A stretch of DNA of 64,000 nucleotides, taken from Blautia sp. (lineage in GTDB: Bacteria > Bacillota > Clostridia > Lachnospirales > Lachnospiraceae). The position numbers were made by a program, and so were the translations under genes. This document shows positions 3,735 through 50,140 of the stretch, in pieces. The notes beneath the pieces were generated by a model. It worked only from the letters and a program-made list of their open reading frames with translations. It was not told the origin of the DNA and did not search any database. The stretch spans positions 4,262 to 68,261 of the forward strand of contig JBMNRL010000016.1 of NCBI GenBank assembly GCA_050944615.1, written 5' to 3'. The stretch's first letter is position 1, and the number at the start of each line of letters is the position of its first letter.

Positions 3735-4610
3735 CTATTTTCCCGGTGTCCATGGCCCCTGATCTTTTATTTCCACCCAAGGGTAGCTTCCCGGTTTTGC
3801 TCCAAAAGTCTTCTCTTTTGCCGCATAATATTTTCCCTGATAATATGCTACTGTTCCTGCTGAATAATTATTTTTCACTTCATCCTTTTCATAGTTAACA
3901 ATATTATCTAAATCAAGTACCACATATTCCGCATTTTTCCCTTGACTCATCCCTTGAATCTTATCATGATTCTCGTTGAAATATTCCAGCGGAAGCTTCG
4001 TATTCAGCATCATTATATAATCTCCATTTTTATCTCTGAAAACCGTATAACGACTCCACTCCCCTACATAATCTCCTGATTTTAAACCCATCGCATAATT
4101 CCATAACCCTTCAAAGTCACCGGCAAACTTTTTAAAATCTTCATCAGCATCATCCTTAGTCCCTGGTTCTGGATCCGTACCTCCAGATCCTCCACCGCTG
4201 CCACCCCCATCATCTATATCCCCCGGATTTGCAGGATCTACAGGAGGAATCCCCTCACCTGCATCTGCTAATATCGTAAAATGACTCTCTTTATGATCTG
4301 GTTCCTCACAAAAAATCTCGTTCTTCGCAGCATTCAAATAATATCTTTTTCCAGAAGGACATGTCATATCTTCATCAGAGATGGAATTCCAGTATTCCTC
4401 CGGTGTCTCTCCATCCAACAGCGCCGTCTCCAGCCCGTAAATCAATGCACTGCGTTTTGCCTCACATTGATCCGCTTTCTTCTTCTCTATGTACTTCATA
4501 CCCGCCGGTACGGTAATGGCCATCAAAATAGACAAAATGACGCAGACCACCACCAATTCAATGAGGGTAAAACCTTTTTGATTTTTTATACGATGTAATC
4601 TATTTTTCAT
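3735..4610 (-). CDS. Type IV prepilin-like protein with Gly/Ser/Pro linker and putative C-terminal CBM5/12-like module
   Basis: Start moved to ATG 4610 (MKNRLH), preceded by AGGAG. Has KG|FTLIELVVVCVIL, a small Cys-containing pilin head (CPSGKRY...C), a GGGSGGGSGG linker, and C-terminal YSAGTVAYYQGKYYAA...PGSYPW. Confidence 0.85.
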   Translation of the reverse strand: MKNRLHRIKNQKGFTLIELVVVCVILSILMAITVPAGMKYIEKKKADQCEAKRSALIYGLETALLDGETPEEYWNSISDEDMTCPSGKRYYLNAAKNEIFCEEPDHKESHFTILADAGEGIPPVDPANPGDIDDGGGSGGGSGGTDPEPGTKDDADEDFKKFAGDFEGLWNYAMGLKSGDYVGEWSRYTVFRDKNGDYIMMLNTKLPLEYFNENHDKIQGMSQGKNAEYVVLDLDNIVNYEKDEVKNNYSAGTVAYYQGKYYAAKEKTFGAKPGSYPWVEIKDQGPWTPGK

Positions 4611-4988: not shown

Positions 4989-6758
4989 TTACTCTTTCGT
5001 CTTCAACAACTGCTTCCAGTCATTCTTTTCCGCAACAGTGTTGCTCGTCTTTTCTTTTTCCTTCTTAATCTGATTCAGCTCTTCCTCTGTCGGATAGCAG
5101 GCTGGCCGACGGATATAACGGAAGGATGCGGAATAAGCTTCCCCCACAGTCACACCGTTTTTGCTGGATGAACAATGTACCGCAATCCAGTCCCCACTGT
5201 CTGTCTGGCCACAAATAATACCTACGTGGTTATCACTGCCGCCTTCCGGGCCTCTCTGGAAAACCAGGTCGCCAGGCTGTGCCTCTGCTTCACTGATCGT
5301 CAGGGCACTGTTCCACTGATCCGTGGTACCATCTCCGATCTGTGCAGCCATAGAAGTATCCCAATAGCCATTATTAAATGCCCAAGTCACAAATCCGCTG
5401 CAATCTAAGCCGTAAGATCTTAAGGAACCAGTAGTCCTGCTTCCCGCAGCATCTACCTGTACAGCACTGCCCCAGGCAGAATCCCATCCCAAGGCATTGG
5501 ATTTACCGCCCCAGAAATAACCGATCTTTCCGATCAGGGAATAAGCCGCTGTGATCACATTGACGCGTTCCTCAGATACCTCTTCTCCCACGCTCTGACG
5601 GACAAAGCCCTTGGCATCGGTAACTGTCGCACACAAAAGTTTACAGTCTGTCTCTACATATTTTTTCAGGATCGCCCGATCCTTCTTCGCAATTTTCTCT
5701 TCTTTTATGTAATAATTGATATGGCGGTTACCGTAGCTTACCTTGGTGATATCTTTTTTGTCACGCACCACCGGATTCATCATAGCAAAAATTTCTGCCA
5801 AATCTTTTTTCGCACCGGCATCCAGCTTATAAGATGTCTTGCCTTCTTTATTCTGCTGGTAAATATAAATAGCCAAAATATCCTGCCAATTGCGCACCAG
5901 TAAGGTATCTCTGGAAGAAGTCACCTCGCTGTTCCTGCGGTCACAGTCATCCTGAAGCTTGTTGGCCGCTTTGTATTCTTGTTCAATTTCTTCCATTACC
6001 TGGGCAAAATCATCGGAAAATTCCAAATTGTAATTTTCCTTCAAGCTGTCCAGATAAAAATCCTTGCCCGCATGGAGATTGGAAACTGCATTGCCCAAAT
6101 ACACCGGGTTGCCTTCCAGCACATTGGTCTTACCCTCTTCACTATCCACGTTCTGGAAATCATCTCCGGCATTAGGATCTTTGGTTTCCTCCAATTGGTG
6201 GTTCGCTTCTTCCTTCTTCAGAAGATCCAGTGTTTCTTCCGCTTGAAGCAGGATATCATAATTTGTCACTAAAAATTTATCATCTTCTGATAGGGTCTCA
6301 TAAATGGAACGAATCTCTTTGATGCGGTCCTCTGACTCTAATGTCACCTCTCCCAGACTGTCAAGCTGCGCGATCACCCAGGCGATCCTTGCCTCGGCCG
6401 GATCATCTGGCTGCGGCGTTGGTGTCTCTGTTGGATCTGGTGACGGCGTTACTGTAGGCTCCGGGGTCGGGGTTGGCGTCTCCGTCGGTTCCGGCGTCGG
6501 TGTCTCACTTGGCTCCGGGGTAGGAGTCTCGGTTGGTTCCGGAGTTGGCGTCTCCGTCGGTTCCGGTGACGGCGTCTCACTTGGTGTAGGTGAAACCTCA
6601 CCATTATCAAAGCCTTCATCGCCAGTCTCAAATCCGGTGTTCTCATCCGCCAACGTCATTGTACCATCCATCGCTGCCATTGCTGATGCCGGACTGGACA
6701 ATACCATCATAGAGATCATCGTTATGCATAAAATTTTCGTCAGATATTTGTTCTTCAT
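4989..6758 (-). CDS. Secreted NlpC/P60 (C40) peptidase with Pro/Thr/Glu-rich linker
   Basis: Signal peptide, PTETP/PEPTETP tandem repeats, C-terminal [12 protein letters not shown]...HVGI...H catalytic motifs. Confidence 0.88.
6395..6590 (-). repeat. Coding tandem repeats (about 24-nt PEPTETPT units)
   Basis: Translation [58 protein letters not shown]; coordinates approximate. Confidence 0.8.
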
Positions 6759-9455: not shown

Positions 9456-9540
9456 CACAAGAAAAAATCACCTGCGGTGAGATGCTTACGCAGTATCTTT
9501 CCATTCTGGGACAGTGTGGTCCCGCACGAAGTGCTCTTTG
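9456..9540 (-). repeat. Diverged copy of the terminator-associated palindromic repeat
   Basis: Aligns by eye to 49726-49868 (plus strand CACCTGCGGTG...CAGTGTGGTCCCGCACGAAGTGC); lies just downstream of the metA terminator. Confidence 0.7.
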
Positions 9541-9582
9541 ATTGGGTAAGATCGTACAGAGAATTTTCCTCCCAAACGAAAA

Positions 9583-9617
9583 GACCCCATAAACGGATAT
9601 CGTCCGTCTATGGGATC
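9583..9617 (-). terminator. metA terminator
   Basis: GACCCCATAAACGGA/TCCGTCTATGGGATC imperfect stem followed by TTTT on the minus strand. Confidence 0.65.
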
Positions 9618-9634: not shown

Positions 9635-10555
9635 TCAAAACGGGGTTCCTACCATATCGTAGGGTGTTGCCTGATATACATAATAGTTCAGCCAATTGGT
9701 ATACAGATTATTGGCATGGGCCCTCCACATCAGAAGCGGTTTGTTTTCCGGATCATTCTCCCGGTAATAGTTCTTGGGAATCTCAATATCCAGCCCTTTT
9801 CCCAAGTCCCTTTTGTATTCTCCGTCCAAGGTCACCCGGTCATATTCCGGATGTCCCATGACGAAAATCTGCCGTCCTTCCTTAGCCATGGCCAAAAATA
9901 AGCCCGCCTCGTCGGATTCCGCCAGCACAGTCAGCTCCTTACATGCCCGGATATCCTCCATGGAAACCTCCGTATGACGGGAATGAGGTGCTAAGAATAC
10001 GTCGTCAAATCCTCTCACCAGCGGAATTTTCCGGTTCATCACCCGGTGCCAAAACAGACCGAACATTTTCTGATCCAACTGTCTCTTCTTCAGCCCGTAA
10101 TGGTAATACAGGCCGGCCTGGGCACCCCAGCACAGGTAAATGGTGGAGGTCACATTGGTCTTGGTCCATTCCATGATCTTAGTCAGCTCTTCCCAATAAT
10201 CCACCTCTTCAAATTCCATCTGCTCCACCGGCGCACCGGTGATGATCATACCATCAAATTTGTTATTTTTCAGATCATCAAACCCCAGATAAAACTTGTT
10301 CAGGTGGCTCATGGAGGTGTTTTTGGACTCATGGCTTTGTACGGCCATGAAAGTCACATCCACCTGCAGAGGTGTATTGGAAAGAGAACGCAGAAGCTGA
10401 AGCTCCGTCTCCTCTTTCAACGGCATCAGATTCAGGATCAGAATCTGGATGGGACGGATATCCTGATGCATCGCCCGATGCTCATCCATCACAAAAATAT
10501 TTTCCTTTTCCAAAATTCCTTTTACCGGTAAATCCCCTTGTATCTTAATCGGCAT
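9635..10555 (-). CDS. metA: Homoserine O-acyltransferase (MetA family, probably acetyl-specific)
   Basis: [24 protein letters not shown] and GHPEYD motifs. Confidence 0.95.
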
Positions 10556-13485: not shown

Positions 13486-14883
13486 GTGCCTGGTCGGAAG
13501 AAACGAACCAGTCGGGTGCTAATCCTTCTCACGGTGTTATTATCGCTGTTTTTTTCAGCGACTTTGACACAATCTTCTGCCAATCCTACGGCAGTATCCA
13601 GTGAGAAACAAATGCCCGACATCATAGTGGCCGAAAATACCCAGGAAAAAAGCCAGACTGCAGAGCTTACCGACAGCGGACTCACAGACGGCGATTTCCA
13701 AGGAGAGGCCAATACAGACGACCCAGCAAAAAAAGACGAGGAAACCTTTCAAAATTCCCAAAACACCGCCAAGGATGCGGATGAATCCTCTGCAGAGGAA
13801 CCAGAGGAGGAACCCATCGGCGACTGGATCTTGGATAATGGCAGCTGGTATTACCAAATCCACGATTATTACAAGACCGGATGGCTGTATGAAGACGACA
13901 AATGGTATTATTTCGATAAAACAGGCGTCATGCAGACCGGATGGGTAGAATCCCAGAAACGTTGGTTCTTCATGGATGAAGATGGTATCATGCAGACTGG
14001 ATGGGTACAGACGGGCGGCAAATGGTATCACATGGATGAGGAAGGCATCATGCAGACCGGATGGCTGGAGGTAGACGGACAATGGTACTACCTCAGCGAC
14101 AAAGGCGATATGCGGACCGGATGGATACAAATCGGTGACAAATGGTATTACTTTAATTCCAACGGCACCATGGCCACCGGGTGGATCGTAGCCAACGGCA
14201 AACGTTATTTCCTGCAGGATAATGGCGTATGGGATCCCGCCGCGGTTCCGGATGCCGCTTCTATTCCAGAAGCGCCCGAGGGCGCAATGGTAGCGCTTAC
14301 CTATGACGACGGGCCGGGACTGTACACAGACCGCCTGCTGGATACTTTAGAAGCCAACAATGCCAAAGCCACTTTCTTCATGCTGGGGGAAAATATACCA
14401 AATTACCCTTCCACGATTCAGCGTATGGAGGCGTTAGGCTGTGAACTCGGCAACCATACTGCGAACCATAAGGATCTGGCTGCCTTGACGCAGGAAGAAA
14501 TCACTGCCCAGGTAGGGCAGGTGGATCAGGCGCTCACCGATATCGTCGGACATGGCTCCACATTGGTGCGGCCGCCTTATGGATCCGCCAATGATCTGGT
14601 GAAGAGCACCGTGCAGGTGCCGCTCATTCTCTGGTCCATGGATACCCTGGACTGGAAGACCTTGGACATTCCTTCCACTGTGGATACAGTGTTTACCAAC
14701 ATCAAGGACGGCGATATCATACTGATGCATGACATTCACGAGACATCCGTGGCCGCATCTGAGATCATCATTCCTGCATTGGTGGAAAAAGGATATCAAT
14801 TGGTCACTGTCAGCGAGTTGGCAGCGGCAAAGGGAATTGAAATGCACACAGGAATCCTTTACGGAAATATGGGTCAGAATTAA
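13486..14883 (+). CDS. CE4 polysaccharide/peptidoglycan deacetylase with cell-wall-binding repeats
   Basis: About 7 x 20-aa GWxxxxxxWY(Y/F)...G.M repeats; TYDDGP, HTANH, RPPYG, DTLDW and LMHD motifs; N-terminal hydrophobic segment. Confidence 0.92.
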   Translation: MPGRKKRTSRVLILLTVLLSLFFSATLTQSSANPTAVSSEKQMPDIIVAENTQEKSQTAELTDSGLTDGDFQGEANTDDPAKKDEETFQNSQNTAKDADESSAEEPEEEPIGDWILDNGSWYYQIHDYYKTGWLYEDDKWYYFDKTGVMQTGWVESQKRWFFMDEDGIMQTGWVQTGGKWYHMDEEGIMQTGWLEVDGQWYYLSDKGDMRTGWIQIGDKWYYFNSNGTMATGWIVANGKRYFLQDNGVWDPAAVPDAASIPEAPEGAMVALTYDDGPGLYTDRLLDTLEANNAKATFFMLGENIPNYPSTIQRMEALGCELGNHTANHKDLAALTQEEITAQVGQVDQALTDIVGHGSTLVRPPYGSANDLVKSTVQVPLILWSMDTLDWKTLDIPSTVDTVFTNIKDGDIILMHDIHETSVAASEIIIPALVEKGYQLVTVSELAAAKGIEMHTGILYGNMGQN

Positions 14884-27902: not shown

Positions 27903-27938
27903 AAAAAGGGAAGGACGTTTCATGGTCCTTCCCTTTTT
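27903..27938 (+). terminator. gdhA terminator
   Basis: AAAAAGGGAAGGAC/GTCCTTCCCTTTTT inverted repeat. Confidence 0.85.
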
Positions 27939-28075
27939 TATTGTATAGGAAAGTTCTTCGAATTTCCTATACAATAAAAAACACTCCGTGCAGGATCGCA
28001 CTGCGGCGGAATGGAAGAATGCCGCTTATGCGACCCGCCGCAGGCGGAGAATCCTGCGAGCAGGATTCTTTCTTG
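27934..28075 (+). repeat. Full copy of the terminator-associated palindromic repeat
   Basis: Reverse complement is near-identical (two differences by eye) to 49726-49868. Confidence 0.9.
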
Positions 28076-28104
28076 TGTGGCAATAGCTGCCCCGATCGCT
28101 GCTC

Positions 28105-37715: not shown

Positions 37716-39521
37716 TTGAGGAAAGTCAAGATACTATTTATTGCGCCTTATCCGGGCCTGGTAGAGCCGATCAACCATGTGATCAAAGCCCATCATGATA
37801 TTGAGGCCACCATTAAGATCGGCGATATGAAGGATGGCGCTCTTATCGCAAAATCCATGATGGTCCATCACTATGACGTAATCATTTCCCGCGGCGGTAC
37901 CGCAGAGCTCATTCGGAAGTCTGTGGAACTGCCGGTAGTAAATATTCCGGTATCCGTTTACGATATCATCCGTTCCATTAAAATGGCGGAAAACTACTGC
38001 GAAGATTTCGCCATTGCCGGTTATCCCAGCATCACCGAATGCGCCAAAATTCTCTGCGATCTCCTGCAGTTGAATACCGAAATCATCACCTTTGACAAAA
38101 TGGAAGACATTCCCCAACAGCTGGGGGCCCTGCGCAAAAAAGGCTACGAGCTGGTAATCTGTGATACCATCGGTGTGACCACGGCCAGCCAGATGGGCAT
38201 GAATTCCATTCTCATCTCCTCCTGGACGGAAAGCATCGAACAGGCAGTGGAAAATGCCCGCTCCCTGGTCAGATCCTCGTATTATTATTTTCGCCAGAAA
38301 GAAATTTTCCAATCCATCCTCACCAGCAAAGAGGAGGATCTGCTCATTTATGATCCCAATGGCCTTTTGTGGTTTTCCAGCATCTCCAAGCCGACGATGC
38401 AGAACATGGTTTACAGCCTGGTACAGCCCTATCTTCCCTCCTTTTTACAGGAACCGGGACAAAAAATTGAGAAACGGGCGGGCTCCACACTCTATTCCAT
38501 ACAGAACCGCCATTTCTATCCCGACGGTCAGAAATACACGGTGATCACCATTTCCCGCAAGGAGTTCCTGTTTTCTGAACAAGATCAGAGCATCTCCATC
38601 TACAACCAGCGGGAAGAAGGCAACGAGGATTTCAGCTTCAGCTACAACAGCGCCAACTATATCGGCAATATCCGGGATACCATCGATTCTTACAGCAAAA
38701 CTTTGTTTCCCGTGCTGATCCTGGGGGAAAACGGCACCGGCAAGGATAAGGCCGCTTCCATCATCTATAAAAACAGCTCCTTACAAAACCATCCGCTGTA
38801 CACGGTGGACTGTGAGCTTCTGGGCGAACGGCGCTGGTCCACCTTACTTAGCAGCAGCAATTCCCCGCTGAACTCCGTGAACAGCACCATCTACTTTAAG
38901 AACATCAATTTTCTCAATAATGCGCAGCTGGAACGGCTGATTTCCTATATGGACCAGGCCAATCTCTCCAGGCTGAACCACTTGTTATTTTCCTACGTGG
39001 AAACACCCGGCGCCCCATCCAGTGAATCCTCCATCTGCAATTACCTGATGAACCGCACAAACTGCCTGGTGCTGCGCTTGCCGCCTCTTAGAGAACGGCA
39101 GAAAGACATCCCCAGCATCTTAACATTATACTTAAACCAGCTAAACCTGGAACTGGGCAAGCAGATCATCGGTTTCGAACCGGAAGCCATGGACCTGATG
39201 AAGAACTTCCCGTGGCCGCAGAATTTAAACCAGCTTCAGCGGATTCTCCGGGAACTGGCGGTGCTCACCACGGATTCCTACATCACCAAAAAGGCCACCA
39301 AAGAACGCTTAAAAAGTGAAAGCTTCTCCGCTTCCTTGCCCTGGCAGGAGGCCAAGGACTTTCCTCTGGACTTAAACCGTTCCCTGGAGGAAATCAATTA
39401 TGATATCATCCGCATGGTTTTGAGTGAAGAAAACAACAACAAAGAAAGAGCCGCCAAGCGGCTGGGCATCAGCCGCAGCACTCTCTGGCGGATCTTAAAG
39501 GCGCATGACAGCACCCAATAG
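37716..39521 (+). CDS. PrpR-N domain / AAA-like / Fis-HTH transcriptional regulator (GAFTGA-less)
   Basis: N-terminal DVIISRGGTA (PrpR_N), Walker A GENGTGK, WPQNLNQL, C-terminal NKERAAKRLGISRSTLWR; TTG start after GAGGAGG. Confidence 0.88.
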   Translation: MRKVKILFIAPYPGLVEPINHVIKAHHDIEATIKIGDMKDGALIAKSMMVHHYDVIISRGGTAELIRKSVELPVVNIPVSVYDIIRSIKMAENYCEDFAIAGYPSITECAKILCDLLQLNTEIITFDKMEDIPQQLGALRKKGYELVICDTIGVTTASQMGMNSILISSWTESIEQAVENARSLVRSSYYYFRQKEIFQSILTSKEEDLLIYDPNGLLWFSSISKPTMQNMVYSLVQPYLPSFLQEPGQKIEKRAGSTLYSIQNRHFYPDGQKYTVITISRKEFLFSEQDQSISIYNQREEGNEDFSFSYNSANYIGNIRDTIDSYSKTLFPVLILGENGTGKDKAASIIYKNSSLQNHPLYTVDCELLGERRWSTLLSSSNSPLNSVNSTIYFKNINFLNNAQLERLISYMDQANLSRLNHLLFSYVETPGAPSSESSICNYLMNRTNCLVLRLPPLRERQKDIPSILTLYLNQLNLELGKQIIGFEPEAMDLMKNFPWPQNLNQLQRILRELAVLTTDSYITKKATKERLKSESFSASLPWQEAKDFPLDLNRSLEEINYDIIRMVLSEENNNKERAAKRLGISRSTLWRILKAHDSTQ

Positions 39522-39645
39522 AATCCTGCGCGCAGGATTCTCCGCCTGCGGCGGGCCGCATACGCGGCATCCTTCCCTTCCGCCGCAGTGCGATCCCGCA
39601 CGGAGGGCTTTTTGTTTCATAGGACGCAATTTCCTATGAAAAAAT
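39521..39645 (-). repeat. Copy of the terminator-associated palindromic repeat
   Basis: Plus strand GAATCCTGCGCGCAGGATTCTCCGCCTGCGGCGGG...GCAGTGCGATCCCGCACGGAGGGC...TTTCATAGGA..TCCTATGAAA, clearly homologous to 49726-49868. Confidence 0.85.
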
Positions 39646-47549: not shown

Positions 47550-49475
47550 TTAATCTTCTGTTTCTACTTTCCGCACCGTACGGTTTGCAATTTCCTTTTG
47601 GATATCCGCAATGAATGCGTCCAGATCCTTAGAGCCTTCGTCTCCCAAGAAACGGCTTCTCACGGATACTTTGCCTTCTTCCTCTTCCTTGGCGCCTACC
47701 ACCAGCATGTACGGAATCTTCTGCAGACGGGCTTCCCGGATCTTATAGCCGATCTTTTCCGCCTTAGTGTCAATCTCTGCACGGATACCGGCATCGTTTA
47801 ACGCTTTCAGCACTTTTTCCCCGTATGCGGCATATTTGTCAGAAATCGGCAGCACCTTCACCTGCACCGGCGCAAGCCAGGTAGGGAATGCGCCTGCAAA
47901 ATGCTCGATGAGAATTCCGATAAAACGCTCGATGGAACCGAAAGCCACGCGGTGAATCATGATCGGTCTGTGTTTTTCCCCATCTGCGCCGATATATTCC
48001 AGATCAAAACGCAGCGGAAGCTGGAAATCCAGCTGAATGGTACCGCACTGCCAGGTCCTGCCGATGGAATCTTCCAAATGGAAATCGATCTTTGGACCGT
48101 AGAATGCGCCATCGCCTTCATTGACCACATAATCCAATCCCAGGTCATCCAATGCGCCTCTTAGAGCATCGGTAGCCATCTCCCAATCCTCATCACTTCC
48201 CATGCTGTTCTCCGGTCGTGTGGAGAGCTCCACATGATATTTGAAGCCAAACAGCTTATAAACCTCATCGATCAGCCTTGCCACGCCTTTGATCTCCTCG
48301 CGGATCTGCTCCGGCATCATGAAGATATGGGCATCGTCCTGGGTAAAGCAGCGCACCCGCATCAGGCCGTGAAGCTGACCAGATTTCTCATGACGGTGCA
48401 CCAGACCCAGCTCGCCCATGCGCAGCGGCAGATCCCGGTAAGAACGGGGTTCTGCCTGGTAGACCAAAATACCGCCCGGGCAGTTCATCGGTTTGATGGC
48501 AAAATCCTGCTCATCAATCACCGTGGTATACATGTTGTCCTTGTAATGATCCCAATGGCCAGAGGTCTCCCACAGATGGCGGCTGAGCATGATCGGAGTC
48601 GCGATCTCCACATAGCCGTTTTTCTTATGGATCTCTCTCCAATAATCCAACAAGGTGTTCTTCAGCACCATCCCCTTGGGCAGGAAGAACGGGAATCCCG
48701 GCCCTTCTTCACGCATCATGAAGAGCCCCAGCTCTTTGCCCAGCTTTCTGTGGTCACGTTTTTTCGCTTCCTCAATCCTGGCCAGATGCTCGTCTAAATC
48801 CGCTTTTTTTGTAAAAGAAGTGCCGTAAATACGGGTCAGCATCTTATTCTTCTCGCTGCCTCTCCAGTAAGCGCCTGCCAGGCTGGTGAGCTTAAAGGCC
48901 TTCACCGGCTTAGTGCTCATAAGGTGTGGTCCCGCGCACAGATCCACAAATTCACCCTGCTGATAGAAGCTGATCACCGCATCCTCCGGAAGGTCCTGAA
49001 TCAGCTCCACCTTATAAGGCTCGCCTTTTTCTTCCATAAAAGCGATGGCCTCTGCCCTGGGCTTGGTGAACTGCTCAATTTTTAAGTTCTCTTTGACGAT
49101 TTTCTTCATTTCGCCTTCGATCTTCTCCAGATCATCCGCGGTGATCGGCGTCTCGGAGTCCACATCATAGTAAAAACCATCCGCGATGGAGGGACCAATA
49201 GCCAGCTTCACATCCGGATACAGGCGCTTGATGGCCTGGGCCATAATATGGGAGGTGGTGTGATGAAATGCCCCACGGCCGCCCTCATCGTTAAAGGTCA
49301 GGATATTCAGACTGCAGTCCTGATCCACCACTGTCCTTAAATCCACAACCTCTCCGTCCACTTCTCCGGCACAGGCCATCCTGGCCAGTCCCTCGCTGAT
49401 ATCAGCGGCGATCTCATAGACTGATTTTGCTTCCTGGTACTCTTTTACTGAGCCGTCTTTCAATGTAATGATCAT
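47550..49475 (-). CDS. thrS: Threonyl-tRNA synthetase
   Basis: TGS domain, DLCAGPH, RDHRKLG, KPMNCP, HRHE.SG.LHGLMRVR.FTQDDAH, WQCGTIQLDF, HRVAFGSIERF. Confidence 0.98.
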   Translation of the reverse strand: MIITLKDGSVKEYQEAKSVYEIAADISEGLARMACAGEVDGEVVDLRTVVDQDCSLNILTFNDEGGRGAFHHTTSHIMAQAIKRLYPDVKLAIGPSIADGFYYDVDSETPITADDLEKIEGEMKKIVKENLKIEQFTKPRAEAIAFMEEKGEPYKVELIQDLPEDAVISFYQQGEFVDLCAGPHLMSTKPVKAFKLTSLAGAYWRGSEKNKMLTRIYGTSFTKKADLDEHLARIEEAKKRDHRKLGKELGLFMMREEGPGFPFFLPKGMVLKNTLLDYWREIHKKNGYVEIATPIMLSRHLWETSGHWDHYKDNMYTTVIDEQDFAIKPMNCPGGILVYQAEPRSYRDLPLRMGELGLVHRHEKSGQLHGLMRVRCFTQDDAHIFMMPEQIREEIKGVARLIDEVYKLFGFKYHVELSTRPENSMGSDEDWEMATDALRGALDDLGLDYVVNEGDGAFYGPKIDFHLEDSIGRTWQCGTIQLDFQLPLRFDLEYIGADGEKHRPIMIHRVAFGSIERFIGILIEHFAGAFPTWLAPVQVKVLPISDKYAAYGEKVLKALNDAGIRAEIDTKAEKIGYKIREARLQKIPYMLVVGAKEEEEGKVSVRSRFLGDEGSKDLDAFIADIQKEIANRTVRKVETED

Positions 49476-49539: not shown

Positions 49540-49725
49540 AGGACTCGGACGCAATTTCCTATGACAGAACAAAGTGGGCAAGCCCACCTCAAGCTCCCCC
49601 TCCCCTCAATCTTTGAGGGGCTTGACAGCTTTGCGCGCCAGATGCACTTTCCTCTTGCATCTGTGCGCATCCCGCACGAAGTGCTTTTTTGTTGTATAGG
49701 AAATTTGAAGAACTTTCCTATACAA
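49540..49725 (-). repeat. Mosaic of diverged/partial repeat modules in the thrS leader
   Basis: GGACGCAATTTCCTATGA is identical to 39622-39639 and CCCGCACGAAGTGC to 9521-9534; TTGTATAGGAAA..TTTCCTATACAA hairpin; extra GTGGGC/GCCCAC, CCCCTCAA/TTGAGGGG and CAGATGCA/TGCATCTG hairpins. Confidence 0.75.
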
Positions 49726-49868
49726 CAAGAAAGAATCCTGCTCGCAGGATTCTCCGCCTGCGGCGGGTCGCATAAGCGGCATTCTTCCCTTCCGCCGCAG
49801 TGCGATCCTGCACGGAGTGCTTTTTTATTGTATAGGAAATTCGAAGAACTTTCCTATACAATAAAAAA
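49726..49868 (-). repeat. Full copy of the terminator-associated palindromic repeat
   Basis: Near-identical to 27934-28075; begins in the U-tract of the T-box terminator. Confidence 0.9.
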
Positions 49869-50140
49869 CCCGCCCCTGCCATTCTTACGAATCACAGGGA
49901 CGGGCCATAGTTCTGTATAGTCCGCGGTTCCACCCTCATTGCATGTCCGTTCCCACACCTCTGATAACCGGCAGGGACGGGTCAACCACTTATTTCGACG
50001 ATAACGGAGTCACCGGGCCGGATTAGGGCCGCTCCGAGTTGGTATTCAGATGTTTCCCACTAAGGCGCTTCCAGCCTGCCGCGTCTCTCTCTGGAATGTT
50101 CCGCATCTTACTCTTCTCTTCTGCGCGTTCACTGTATAAA
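49863..50140 (-). ncRNA. T-box riboswitch (Thr) upstream of thrS
   Basis: Stem I with AGAGA and GCTGGAA motifs, specifier GAAT-ACC (Thr), T-box AGGGTGGAACCGCG, terminator GCCCGTCCCTG/CAGGGGCGGG plus U-tract. Confidence 0.92.

Follow-up and report, generated by a model that had tools for sequence, protein, structure and literature searches.

What is the small hairpin-rich segment that lies directly behind the metA gene of a Blautia sp. genome, and are its hairpins maintained because of their fold? The segment (positions 9458-9582) belongs to the window, the whole stretch of 64,000 nucleotides that was analysed (positions 4,262 to 68,261 of the forward strand of contig JBMNRL010000016.1, assembly GCA_050944615.1), whose coordinates are used below. 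We find that it is one member of a large interspersed family, and we consider it probable that it is the decayed remnant of a mobile, non-autonomous repeat of gut Lachnospiraceae that holds no gene and would be handled as folded single-stranded DNA by an enzyme acting in trans. The family and its covariation are described first, then its position in the genome, the metA copy itself, and the explanations that compete for it.

A modular family of interspersed repeats

Iterated nhmmer searches of the whole assembly, a 91%-complete draft in which genes were called by a simple open reading frame (ORF) rule, give about 185 non-overlapping matches to the repeat in 2.86 Mb (237 before removal of overlaps), 46 of which are full length. 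A 21-mer of the repeat has 5 matches in the 64-kb window, compared to 0 expected from 100 shuffles. The unit measures 75-140 nt, carries 4-5 hairpins and has no gene inside. Units follow each other head-to-tail in arrays, and mixed orientation is found in two arrays only.

Two families, A and B, and a short form share a module composed of a small GC hairpin (H4) and a long AT-rich hairpin (T-hairpin). The H4 module is present in 187 copies, distributed among family A (75), family B (51) and others, short form included (61). Read in the + orientation, family A opens with CAAGAAA, hairpin H1 (GAATCCTGC-TCG-CAGGATTC), CCGCCTGCGGCGG and hairpin H3 (GYCGC-ATAA-GCGRC), continues with a C/T-rich stretch, CCGCCGCAG, TGCGATCC, H4 (GCAC-GGA-GTGC) and a run of T5-6, and closes with the T-hairpin, built around ATAGGA...TCCTAT, and a run of A5-6. 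In family B the part to the left of H4 is swapped for GAACAAA, GTGGGCAAGCCCAC, CCCCTCAATCTTTGAGGGG and CAGATGCA-CTTTCCTCT-TGCATCTG. The short form, of ~75 nt, has CAAGAAAGAATCCTGC fused directly to ACGGAGTGC and the T-hairpin (for example at C10:12997, C12:57292 and C41:6672). It looks like the product of a deletion between two ATCCTGC direct repeats of family A; alternatively, it may be the minimal ancestral unit.

The alignment of the 46 full copies with their flanks, together with flank logos, reveals neither terminal inverted repeats nor a target duplication for the whole unit, whose two ends are unlike; only the T module, taken by itself, forms an inverted repeat (16-17 bp). In logos of solo copies (105 of A and 21 of B), flank conservation ends 6-8 nt outside H1 or the family-B hairpin B1. 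The left flank of the 105 solo copies is conserved in its last 6-8 nt only (a.AAgAAA), while the opposite end of the unit is an A-run. Lone matches to the H1 and B1 motifs in this genome lie inside genes and were attributed to chance.

Six 137-nt copies that are 98-99% identical and 14 pairs with at least 97% identity denote recent activity of the family. Full copies have a median identity of 94% to the consensus, with a minimum of 80%. No Rfam 15 family matches the repeat at gathering or E-value thresholds, the sole gathering-level match in the window being a tRNA; sub-threshold matches on the A/B mosaic correspond to chance microRNA-like hairpins and to the end of the adjoining T-box. A literature search found no description of the repeat.

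Covariation and folding of the hairpins

Hairpins H3 and H4 and the T-hairpin are under structural constraint. Covariation was measured in 122 distinct full-length family-A cores, whose sources are this genome and 116 loci of other Lachnospiraceae, after alignment to a sequence-only hidden Markov model (HMM). The statistic was mutual information with average-product correction over 4,656 column pairs, in which kinship among copies is not modelled. The three top-ranking column pairs are all predicted base pairs of H3 and H4, to which only 9 of the 4,656 pairs belong. The strongest is the third pair of H4, read as GC in 44 copies, AT in 41 and CG in 29, with two non-pairs; the two H3 pairs in the top three are CG 106/TA 13 and TA 83/CG 22/TG 12. 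When partners were shuffled 500 times, the observed pairing was reached by no shuffle for H3 or H4, by 4 for H1, by 13 for the local hairpin CCGCC/GGCGG and by 47 for a competing long stem. An alternative hairpin, H5 (GTGCG/CGCAC), is unsupported, 100 of the 500 shuffles doing as well. Both-sided changes in 37 maximally diverse copies affect 3 of 5 pairs of H3 and 3 of 4 pairs of H4, compared to 0 of 5 in CCGCC/GGCGG and 1 of 9 in the long stem; the whole-structure scores of these copies are reached by no shuffle.

In family B (44 copies) covariation is again strongest at the third pair of H4 (AT 33, CG 10), and hairpin B1 has TA37/CG4 at one pair. In 148 distinct intact copies of the T-hairpin, three arm positions beside the core are 91-95% Watson-Crick and use all four pair types. 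The loop of H4 is GGA in 113 of 132 copies and GAA in seven, conforming to G-N-A in 121. Sequence is free to vary in the loops of H3 and in the C/T-rich segment, with the stems remaining paired.

A preliminary description of this DNA had proposed that the hairpins of the repeat are under structural selection and had suggested covariation across copies as a check. The mutual information found in 122 copies bears this out for H3 and H4, whose stems do not decay randomly, and the T-hairpin covaries too, but the CCGCC/GGCGG hairpin that it had cited does not. The two G-N-A triloops that it had noticed have different standing: GGA, on the + strand, is the conserved H4 loop, but GCA is present on the - strand only and the two cannot both act in one strand.

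In the minimum-energy fold of intact copies, on both strands, CTGCGGCGG pairs with CCGCCGCAG around H3, instead of forming the local CCGCC/GGCGG hairpin. Intact copies reach fold z-scores of about -9 on either strand. H1 and the CCGCC region are >95% invariant, even between genera, which points to recognition of the sequence itself.

Position behind terminators and orientation relative to replication

Relative to the + form of the repeat, flanking genes are arranged as '--' in 93 cases, convergent in 40, divergent in 11 and '++' in 4, so that the reverse complement is the gene-sense form; the gene on the downstream side converges on the element in 133 of 148 cases. In gene-sense form a copy sets in at the T-run behind a GC-rich hairpin of the host; for 75 of 76 array heads, the end of a predicted stem lies 4-13 nt ahead of the ATAGGA core. 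It finishes with H1 or B1 followed by TTTCTTG or TTTGTTC, and the next unit of an array begins exactly there. At metA and gdhA the host hairpin that precedes the copy is the terminator of the gene itself.

A simple predictor finds 72 gene terminators that carry a copy directly after them. Copies follow 67 of 326 leading-strand terminators versus 5 of 115 on the lagging strand (odds ratio 5.7, Fisher p 1.5e-5), with the leading strand assigned by GC skew along the draft contigs. Co-orientation with replication holds for 131 of 143 arrays (92%), versus 78.6% of genes (p 2.5e-5), and the result persists when window size or threshold is changed. In two complete chromosomes the copies change strand from one replichore to the other (32/40 and 8/9). 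Orthologues of metA in five relatives (82-92% identity) and of gdhA in 29 relatives have a terminator with no repeat behind it. An exact-protein look-up of GdhA found no record.

The decayed copy behind metA

Alignment to intact copies and to the family HMM resolves the locus into the following segments.

9458-9467, + strand: left boundary motif CAAGAAAAAA, a degenerate form of the family-A end CAAGAAA
9468-9480, + strand: 'H2 local' hairpin TCACC-TGC-GGTGA, with two both-sided changes relative to CCGCC-TGC-GGCGG
9481-9494, + strand: H3 remnant GATGC-TTAC-GCAGT, with three Watson-Crick pairs, one G-T and one mismatch
9495-9523, + strand: C/T-rich segment and broken 3' strand of the long-range stem (from alignment and fold)
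9524-9534, + strand: H4, GCAC-GAA-GTGC, part of the module common to all families
9535-9582, + strand: decayed T-hairpin, with T-run, AT-rich arms around the ATAGGA...TCCTAT core, and A-run
9583-9617, - strand: intrinsic terminator hairpin of metA, GATCCCATAGACGG...CCGTTTATGGGGTC then TTTTCGTTT on the minus strand; the repeat begins directly after it
9635-10555, - strand: metA, homoserine O-acyltransferase (ORF of 306 aa), whose terminator is followed by the copy

With 73% identity to the consensus this is the most diverged copy of the repeat. Hairpin H1, which normally comes after the left boundary motif, is missing, and the broken strand of the long stem pairs locally as GGGAC-AGTGTG-GTCCC (9508-9523). 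The copy folds no better than shuffles (z -0.6/-0.7 as DNA and -1.4/-1.1 as RNA). It is a decayed relic of the repeat.

The strings quoted in the preliminary description (TCACC-TGC-GGTGA, GCAC-GAA-GTGC, CCGCC-TGC-GGCGG and the GCCGC and GTCGC stems) are all present and belong to one repeat, the position 49745 given for one of them being approximate (49754-49766). Its loop-only change from GCAC-GGA-GTGC to GCAC-GAA-GTGC is confirmed, the stem of H4 being intact at 9524-9534 with a loop that recurs in other copies. The statement that the H3 stems are kept is correct for the copies with stems at 39555 and 49767, but not for the remnant behind metA. The double compensatory change is indeed read at 9468-9480, but the TCACC/GGTGA variant is unique, seen only once in this genome and in ~170 loci of other Lachnospiraceae, and the canonical hairpin has no compensated pair among the 37 diverse copies. 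Neutral simulation with 20 random substitutions yields two compensated pairs in that hairpin with p ~0.002, or in any of three hairpins with p 0.004, both before correction for the post hoc choice among ~185 copies. In a single copy the variant is mildly surprising, and templated change within a quasi-palindrome would likewise yield it in one step.

Other copies and repeats in the window

The window holds further copies, which are listed with their landmarks.

27934-28076, - strand: intact copy of family A, oriented as usual, which begins at the T-tract of the gdhA terminator
39513-39645, + strand: intact family-A copy (fold z-score -6.5/-5.6)
39542-39554, + strand: CCGCC-TGC-GGCGG of that copy, read directly
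39555-39568, + strand: GCCGC-ATAC-GCGGC, directly following
47550-49475, - strand: thrS
49567-49724, + strand: family-B copy in tandem with the next family-A copy, with GAACAAA, GTGGGCAAGCCCAC, CCCCTCAATCTTTGAGGGG, CAGATGCA-loop-TGCATCTG, H4 and T-hairpin
49725-49868, + strand: intact family-A reference copy, with CAAGAAA, H1, long stem around H3, H4 and T-hairpin
49754-49766, + strand: CCGCC-TGC-GGCGG of the reference copy, read directly
49767-49780, + strand: GTCGC-ATAA-GCGGC, directly following
49893-49950, - strand: 3' end of the thrS T-box

The reference copy has fold z-scores of -9.0/-9.6 as DNA and -7.6/-8.6 as RNA, and the copy behind gdhA is 99% identical to it (over 49732-49868). The copy at 39513-39645 is one of the few that point the opposite way: it begins on the stop codon of a regulator gene on the + strand (37716-39521) and precedes the bidirectional terminator of that gene. 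The tandem of one B and one A copy (49567-49868) stands between the T-box terminator and the start codon of thrS, so that read-through transcripts must cross two hairpin-plus-T tails borne by the element. Either the tails terminate transcription only weakly or thrS is served by a further promoter.

Another small repeat, unrelated to the first, has inverted ends GATTCGGGTGTCAAAAG...CTTTTGACACCCGAATC and exists in forms of ~55-70 and ~207 nt. It is found in the window at ~49524 and elsewhere in the genome at C25:38924-39129, C44:9251-9458 and C5:94642-94733. It occurs inside T-hairpin loops or in their place, with (C)TATGAA on either side, and seems to target or extend the T-hairpin module. No transposase was found with it. 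Its longest 'copy' only brackets a host AAA-ATPase gene and was rejected as a parent insertion sequence (IS). Two coding tandem repeats are also present in the window: five 60-nt units of a GW...WYYF-type cell-wall-binding repeat (13874-14190) and seven 24-30-nt units of a Gly/Ser/Val-rich linker (6390-6584).

Distribution of the repeat

The repeat is found in 21 of 40 sampled species of the genus and is absent from 12 other families of the order, each represented by one sample. The 23-mer CAGGATTCTCCGCCTGCGGCGGG occurs exactly in >116 contigs, labelled as Blautia (including Blautia wexlerae), Dorea, Roseburia, Kineothrix, Fusicatenibacter, Laedolimicola and others. A family-A element with 79-90% identity is carried by the plasmid records NZ_CP119189.1 and NZ_CP135163.1 and by eleven contigs of a phage collection. 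The carriers include a 225-kb record labelled Clostridium perfringens (goat faeces), a Roseburia plasmid, and unannotated human-faecal contigs labelled 'Bacteriophage sp.' (MT839789.1, MT838488.1, MT836725.1 and the eight others of the eleven). Plasmid and phage-labelled records may be vehicles between hosts, or may represent bacterial DNA in viromes.

Search for a copying enzyme

Clustering of the ORFs in the 116 loci around copies yields no conserved neighbour gene and no recombinase, transposase or reverse transcriptase; the clusters are generic families only, such as ABC ATPases, response regulators and MATE pumps. Several candidates were discarded. Partial matches to the first 40 nt of the repeat in relatives, considered as ends of an autonomous element, are contig-end truncations or degenerate copies. 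The T-hairpin was dropped as the core site of a tyrosine recombinase, its spacer varying from ~6 to 20 nt, and an IS91-type target, suggested by CTTG/GTTC at the family ends, fails at host junctions.

A model for the spread of the repeat

From the census, boundaries, position, orientation and covariation observed among copies we infer that copying depends on folding and passes through single-stranded DNA. A copy starts at the T-tract of an intrinsic terminator with the T-hairpin, followed by the 4-bp GC hairpin with its GGA loop and by a family-specific body, which in family A is a predicted 9-bp stem around a small hairpin, and finishes with a GC hairpin and a T-rich 7-mer. This end is shaped like the terminator behind which the copy sits, which would explain the head-to-tail arrays. 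Hairpins would be kept since only copies that fold are copied further; compensated changes would mark active source lineages, and uncompensated ones dead copies such as that of metA. The folded form would most likely be DNA left single-stranded on the lagging-strand template, on which hairpins of terminators can extrude and where insertion would occur, with cutting and joining by an enzyme supplied in trans.

Several observations weigh against this model. H1 and the 9-bp stem are nearly invariant, and their conservation may reflect recognition of the sequence, not of the fold. Mismatches give no clear folding strand: G-T and A-C number 48 versus 22 in H3 and H4 together, where two columns drive the difference, and 21 versus 21 in the T-hairpin. 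Many unrelated IS families of Firmicutes also show an orientation bias linked to replication, which is therefore not diagnostic of single-strand transposition (PMC3971601). The bias in complete chromosome G053 (80%) is no higher than the typical gene bias. No empty site was recovered, since downstream synteny and the terminators of gdhA and metA in relatives are too different for the junction to be read; mobility and the exact junction are therefore deduced from the comparison of copies only. The 91%-complete assembly has no match to Y1 HUH (PF01797), RVT_1 or the TnpB zinc ribbon, and IS110 gave one weak sub-cut-off match only, inside a 1,426-aa ORF. No IS91 Y2 match was obtained in the assembly either, a result of little weight because the model matched no control genome. 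Repeated insertion sequences are often missing from draft assemblies, and the absence of Y1 here may be an assembly effect.

Other explanations would assign the repeat to a known enzyme, to RNA or to mutation. A Y1 HUH transposase of the REP/RAYT or IS200/IS605 type would recognise the hairpins in single-stranded DNA and cut at a fixed distance from a hairpin foot, and the repeats would be its non-autonomous PATE or REP derivatives. The unlike ends, the lack of target duplication, the hairpins at both ends and the orientation-specific insertion suit such an enzyme, as does the lagging-strand-template bias, which matches that of IS608 and ISDra2 (PMC6006769, PMC5027513). Y1 genes are common in the genus (24 of 41 genomes, often at contig ends) and are present in 17 of 22 repeat-bearing genomes versus 7 of 19 without the repeat, but the association vanishes among genomes at least 90% complete (10 of 12 versus 7 of 11). 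No repeat modules lie beside the Y1 genes at seven loci of relatives, and no full-length TnpA-encoding IS that shares the repeat ends was found at these loci or in this genome. PF01797 has no match here despite the presence of 98-99% identical copies, and the repeat has neither a GTAG-type head nor the alternating orientation of REP elements, which renders this origin quite unlikely. The proposal in the preliminary description of recognition as folded single-stranded DNA, for example by an HUH nuclease, is thus upheld in part: anatomy and strand bias fit single-strand or group IIC elements, but no Y1 gene was found in this draft assembly and, among genomes at least 90% complete, Y1 presence does not track the repeat.

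We also find it rather unlikely that selection acts on RNA, with the repeat serving as a 3' untranslated module that would be a back-up terminator, a stabiliser of mRNA 3' ends or a small RNA with C/U-rich, anti-Shine-Dalgarno-like loops, kept or tolerated by the host. Copies do stand just downstream of genes in a fixed orientation, their gene-sense end is a terminator-like hairpin with a T-rich tail that is also picked up by a consensus scan, and the opposite strand of both families, A and B, offers a C/T-rich loop, carried by stems that are unrelated, ahead of H4 and T6. The fold z-score as RNA (-7.6/-8.6) and the core conserved across genera, as seen with the exact 23-mer, also agree with this proposal. 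However, copies sit behind a host terminator, where little read-through transcription is expected, and a scan of the element yielded no promoter consensus. The avoidance of lagging-strand terminators is left unexplained, efficient termination in the thrS leader would presumably silence an essential gene, and no Rfam family matches. Selfish repeats typically show shuffling of modules, tandem arrays and decay of copies, as is seen here. It is highly improbable that the compensating changes arose with no structural selection, by template switching in quasi-palindromes or gene conversion between copies. The lone TCACC/GGTGA does sit in an otherwise decayed copy, as expected from a one-step templated change, and the same H4 variants (A-T and C-G) are found in families A and B, which fits module exchange. 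Yet in many genera several pair types are found at three or more positions of H3, the T-hairpin has four types at three positions, loops and C/T-rich segment vary while stems stay paired, and uncompensated changes dominate in diverged copies only.

Copying of folded single-stranded DNA by an enzyme in trans is the explanation that we retain. A bolder version of it, which we hold to be doubtful, is that the repeat represents a new class of terminator-homing non-coding element, a cassette of 75-140 nt inserted at a fixed short distance behind any hairpin-plus-T-tract of the lagging-strand template. The enzyme would then be neither Y1 HUH nor a group II reverse transcriptase and might be a replication or repair protein of the host; copies would recreate their target, seed arrays and spread across genera.

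Implications

In kind, the repeat is a small non-autonomous interspersed repeat, and its copies should be masked as repeats in genome annotation, not described as gene-specific riboswitches or attenuators. Lachnospiraceae are dominant bacteria of the human gut. The repeat fills a noticeable share of their intergenic DNA and stands behind one in five predicted leading-strand terminators, and even within a T-box leader, so that it may affect termination and transcript 3' ends, as well as genome assembly. To our knowledge, no element apart from group IIC introns homes to terminators. Identifying what copies the repeat could reveal a new way of recognising folded DNA.

Comparison with known systems

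The PATEs and REP elements associated with IS200/IS605 are, like the repeat, short and non-coding, have no inverted ends or target duplication and carry end hairpins whose fold matters; PATEs also insert in a specific orientation with a bias linked to the replication fork (PMC6006769). The structurally conserved subterminal hairpins that PATEs have at both ends find a counterpart here in the covarying T-hairpin and, at the other end, in H1 or B1, H1 being nearly invariant. An orientation bias tied to the lagging-strand template is also present, a feature that is not specific to PATEs (PMC3971601), but the ends that PATEs share with a TnpA-encoding IS have no equivalent. PATEs and REP elements differ further in their target, a fixed tetranucleotide instead of a terminator hairpin with T-tract. 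REP is one palindrome of 20-40 nt with a GTAG head, whereas the repeat measures 75-140 nt and has no GTAG at either end; REPIN and BIME alternate in orientation, whereas the arrays here are head-to-tail, and the assembly has no RAYT (Y1) gene.

Group IIC introns are located immediately behind intrinsic terminator motifs, which consist of an inverted repeat and a run of Ts, and lie in sense orientation (PMC1702495); they thus share with the repeat their position behind a terminator stem-loop and their orientation. They differ by their ribozyme domains I-VI, a length of several hundred nt or more and, usually, a reverse transcriptase ORF, whereas the repeat is far shorter, gives no Rfam group II match and has no RVT_1 in the assembly. 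By analogy, the mechanism would resemble that of IS200/IS605 and of group IIC introns, while membership in either group fails on defining features. The whole unit also lacks the terminal inverted repeats and target-site duplication of a classical miniature inverted-repeat transposable element. The BIMEs of enterobacteria are likewise high-copy extragenic mosaics of few hairpin modules. They alternate the orientation of REP and are tied to RAYT genes, whereas the arrays described here are direct, with a terminator-like hairpin adjoining every unit.

Among described repeats, those closest in shape are SPRITE, BOX and RUP of Streptococcus pneumoniae (Croucher et al. 2011), interspersed repeats of <200 bp with stable folds, BOX being modular (PMC3049150). 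The leading-strand share of these pneumococcal repeats (~61-63%) does no more than mirror the coding bias, and inverted ends with target duplications are found in BOX and RUP (PMC3049150). Arrays of the repeat, by contrast, exceed the bias of genes (92% versus 79%), and its family spans many genera. SPRITE has an AT-rich 18-bp duplex with AAAA/TTTT ends and a T-rich tract and is enriched at gene 3' ends, its mobilising enzyme and target duplication being unknown (PMC3049150). The T-hairpin module is similar to it in shape and in position at the 3' end of genes, a likeness drawn from published descriptions of SPRITE. What sets the repeat of Lachnospiraceae apart is that GC-rich covarying modules, with no counterpart in SPRITE, are joined to this AT-rich hairpin.

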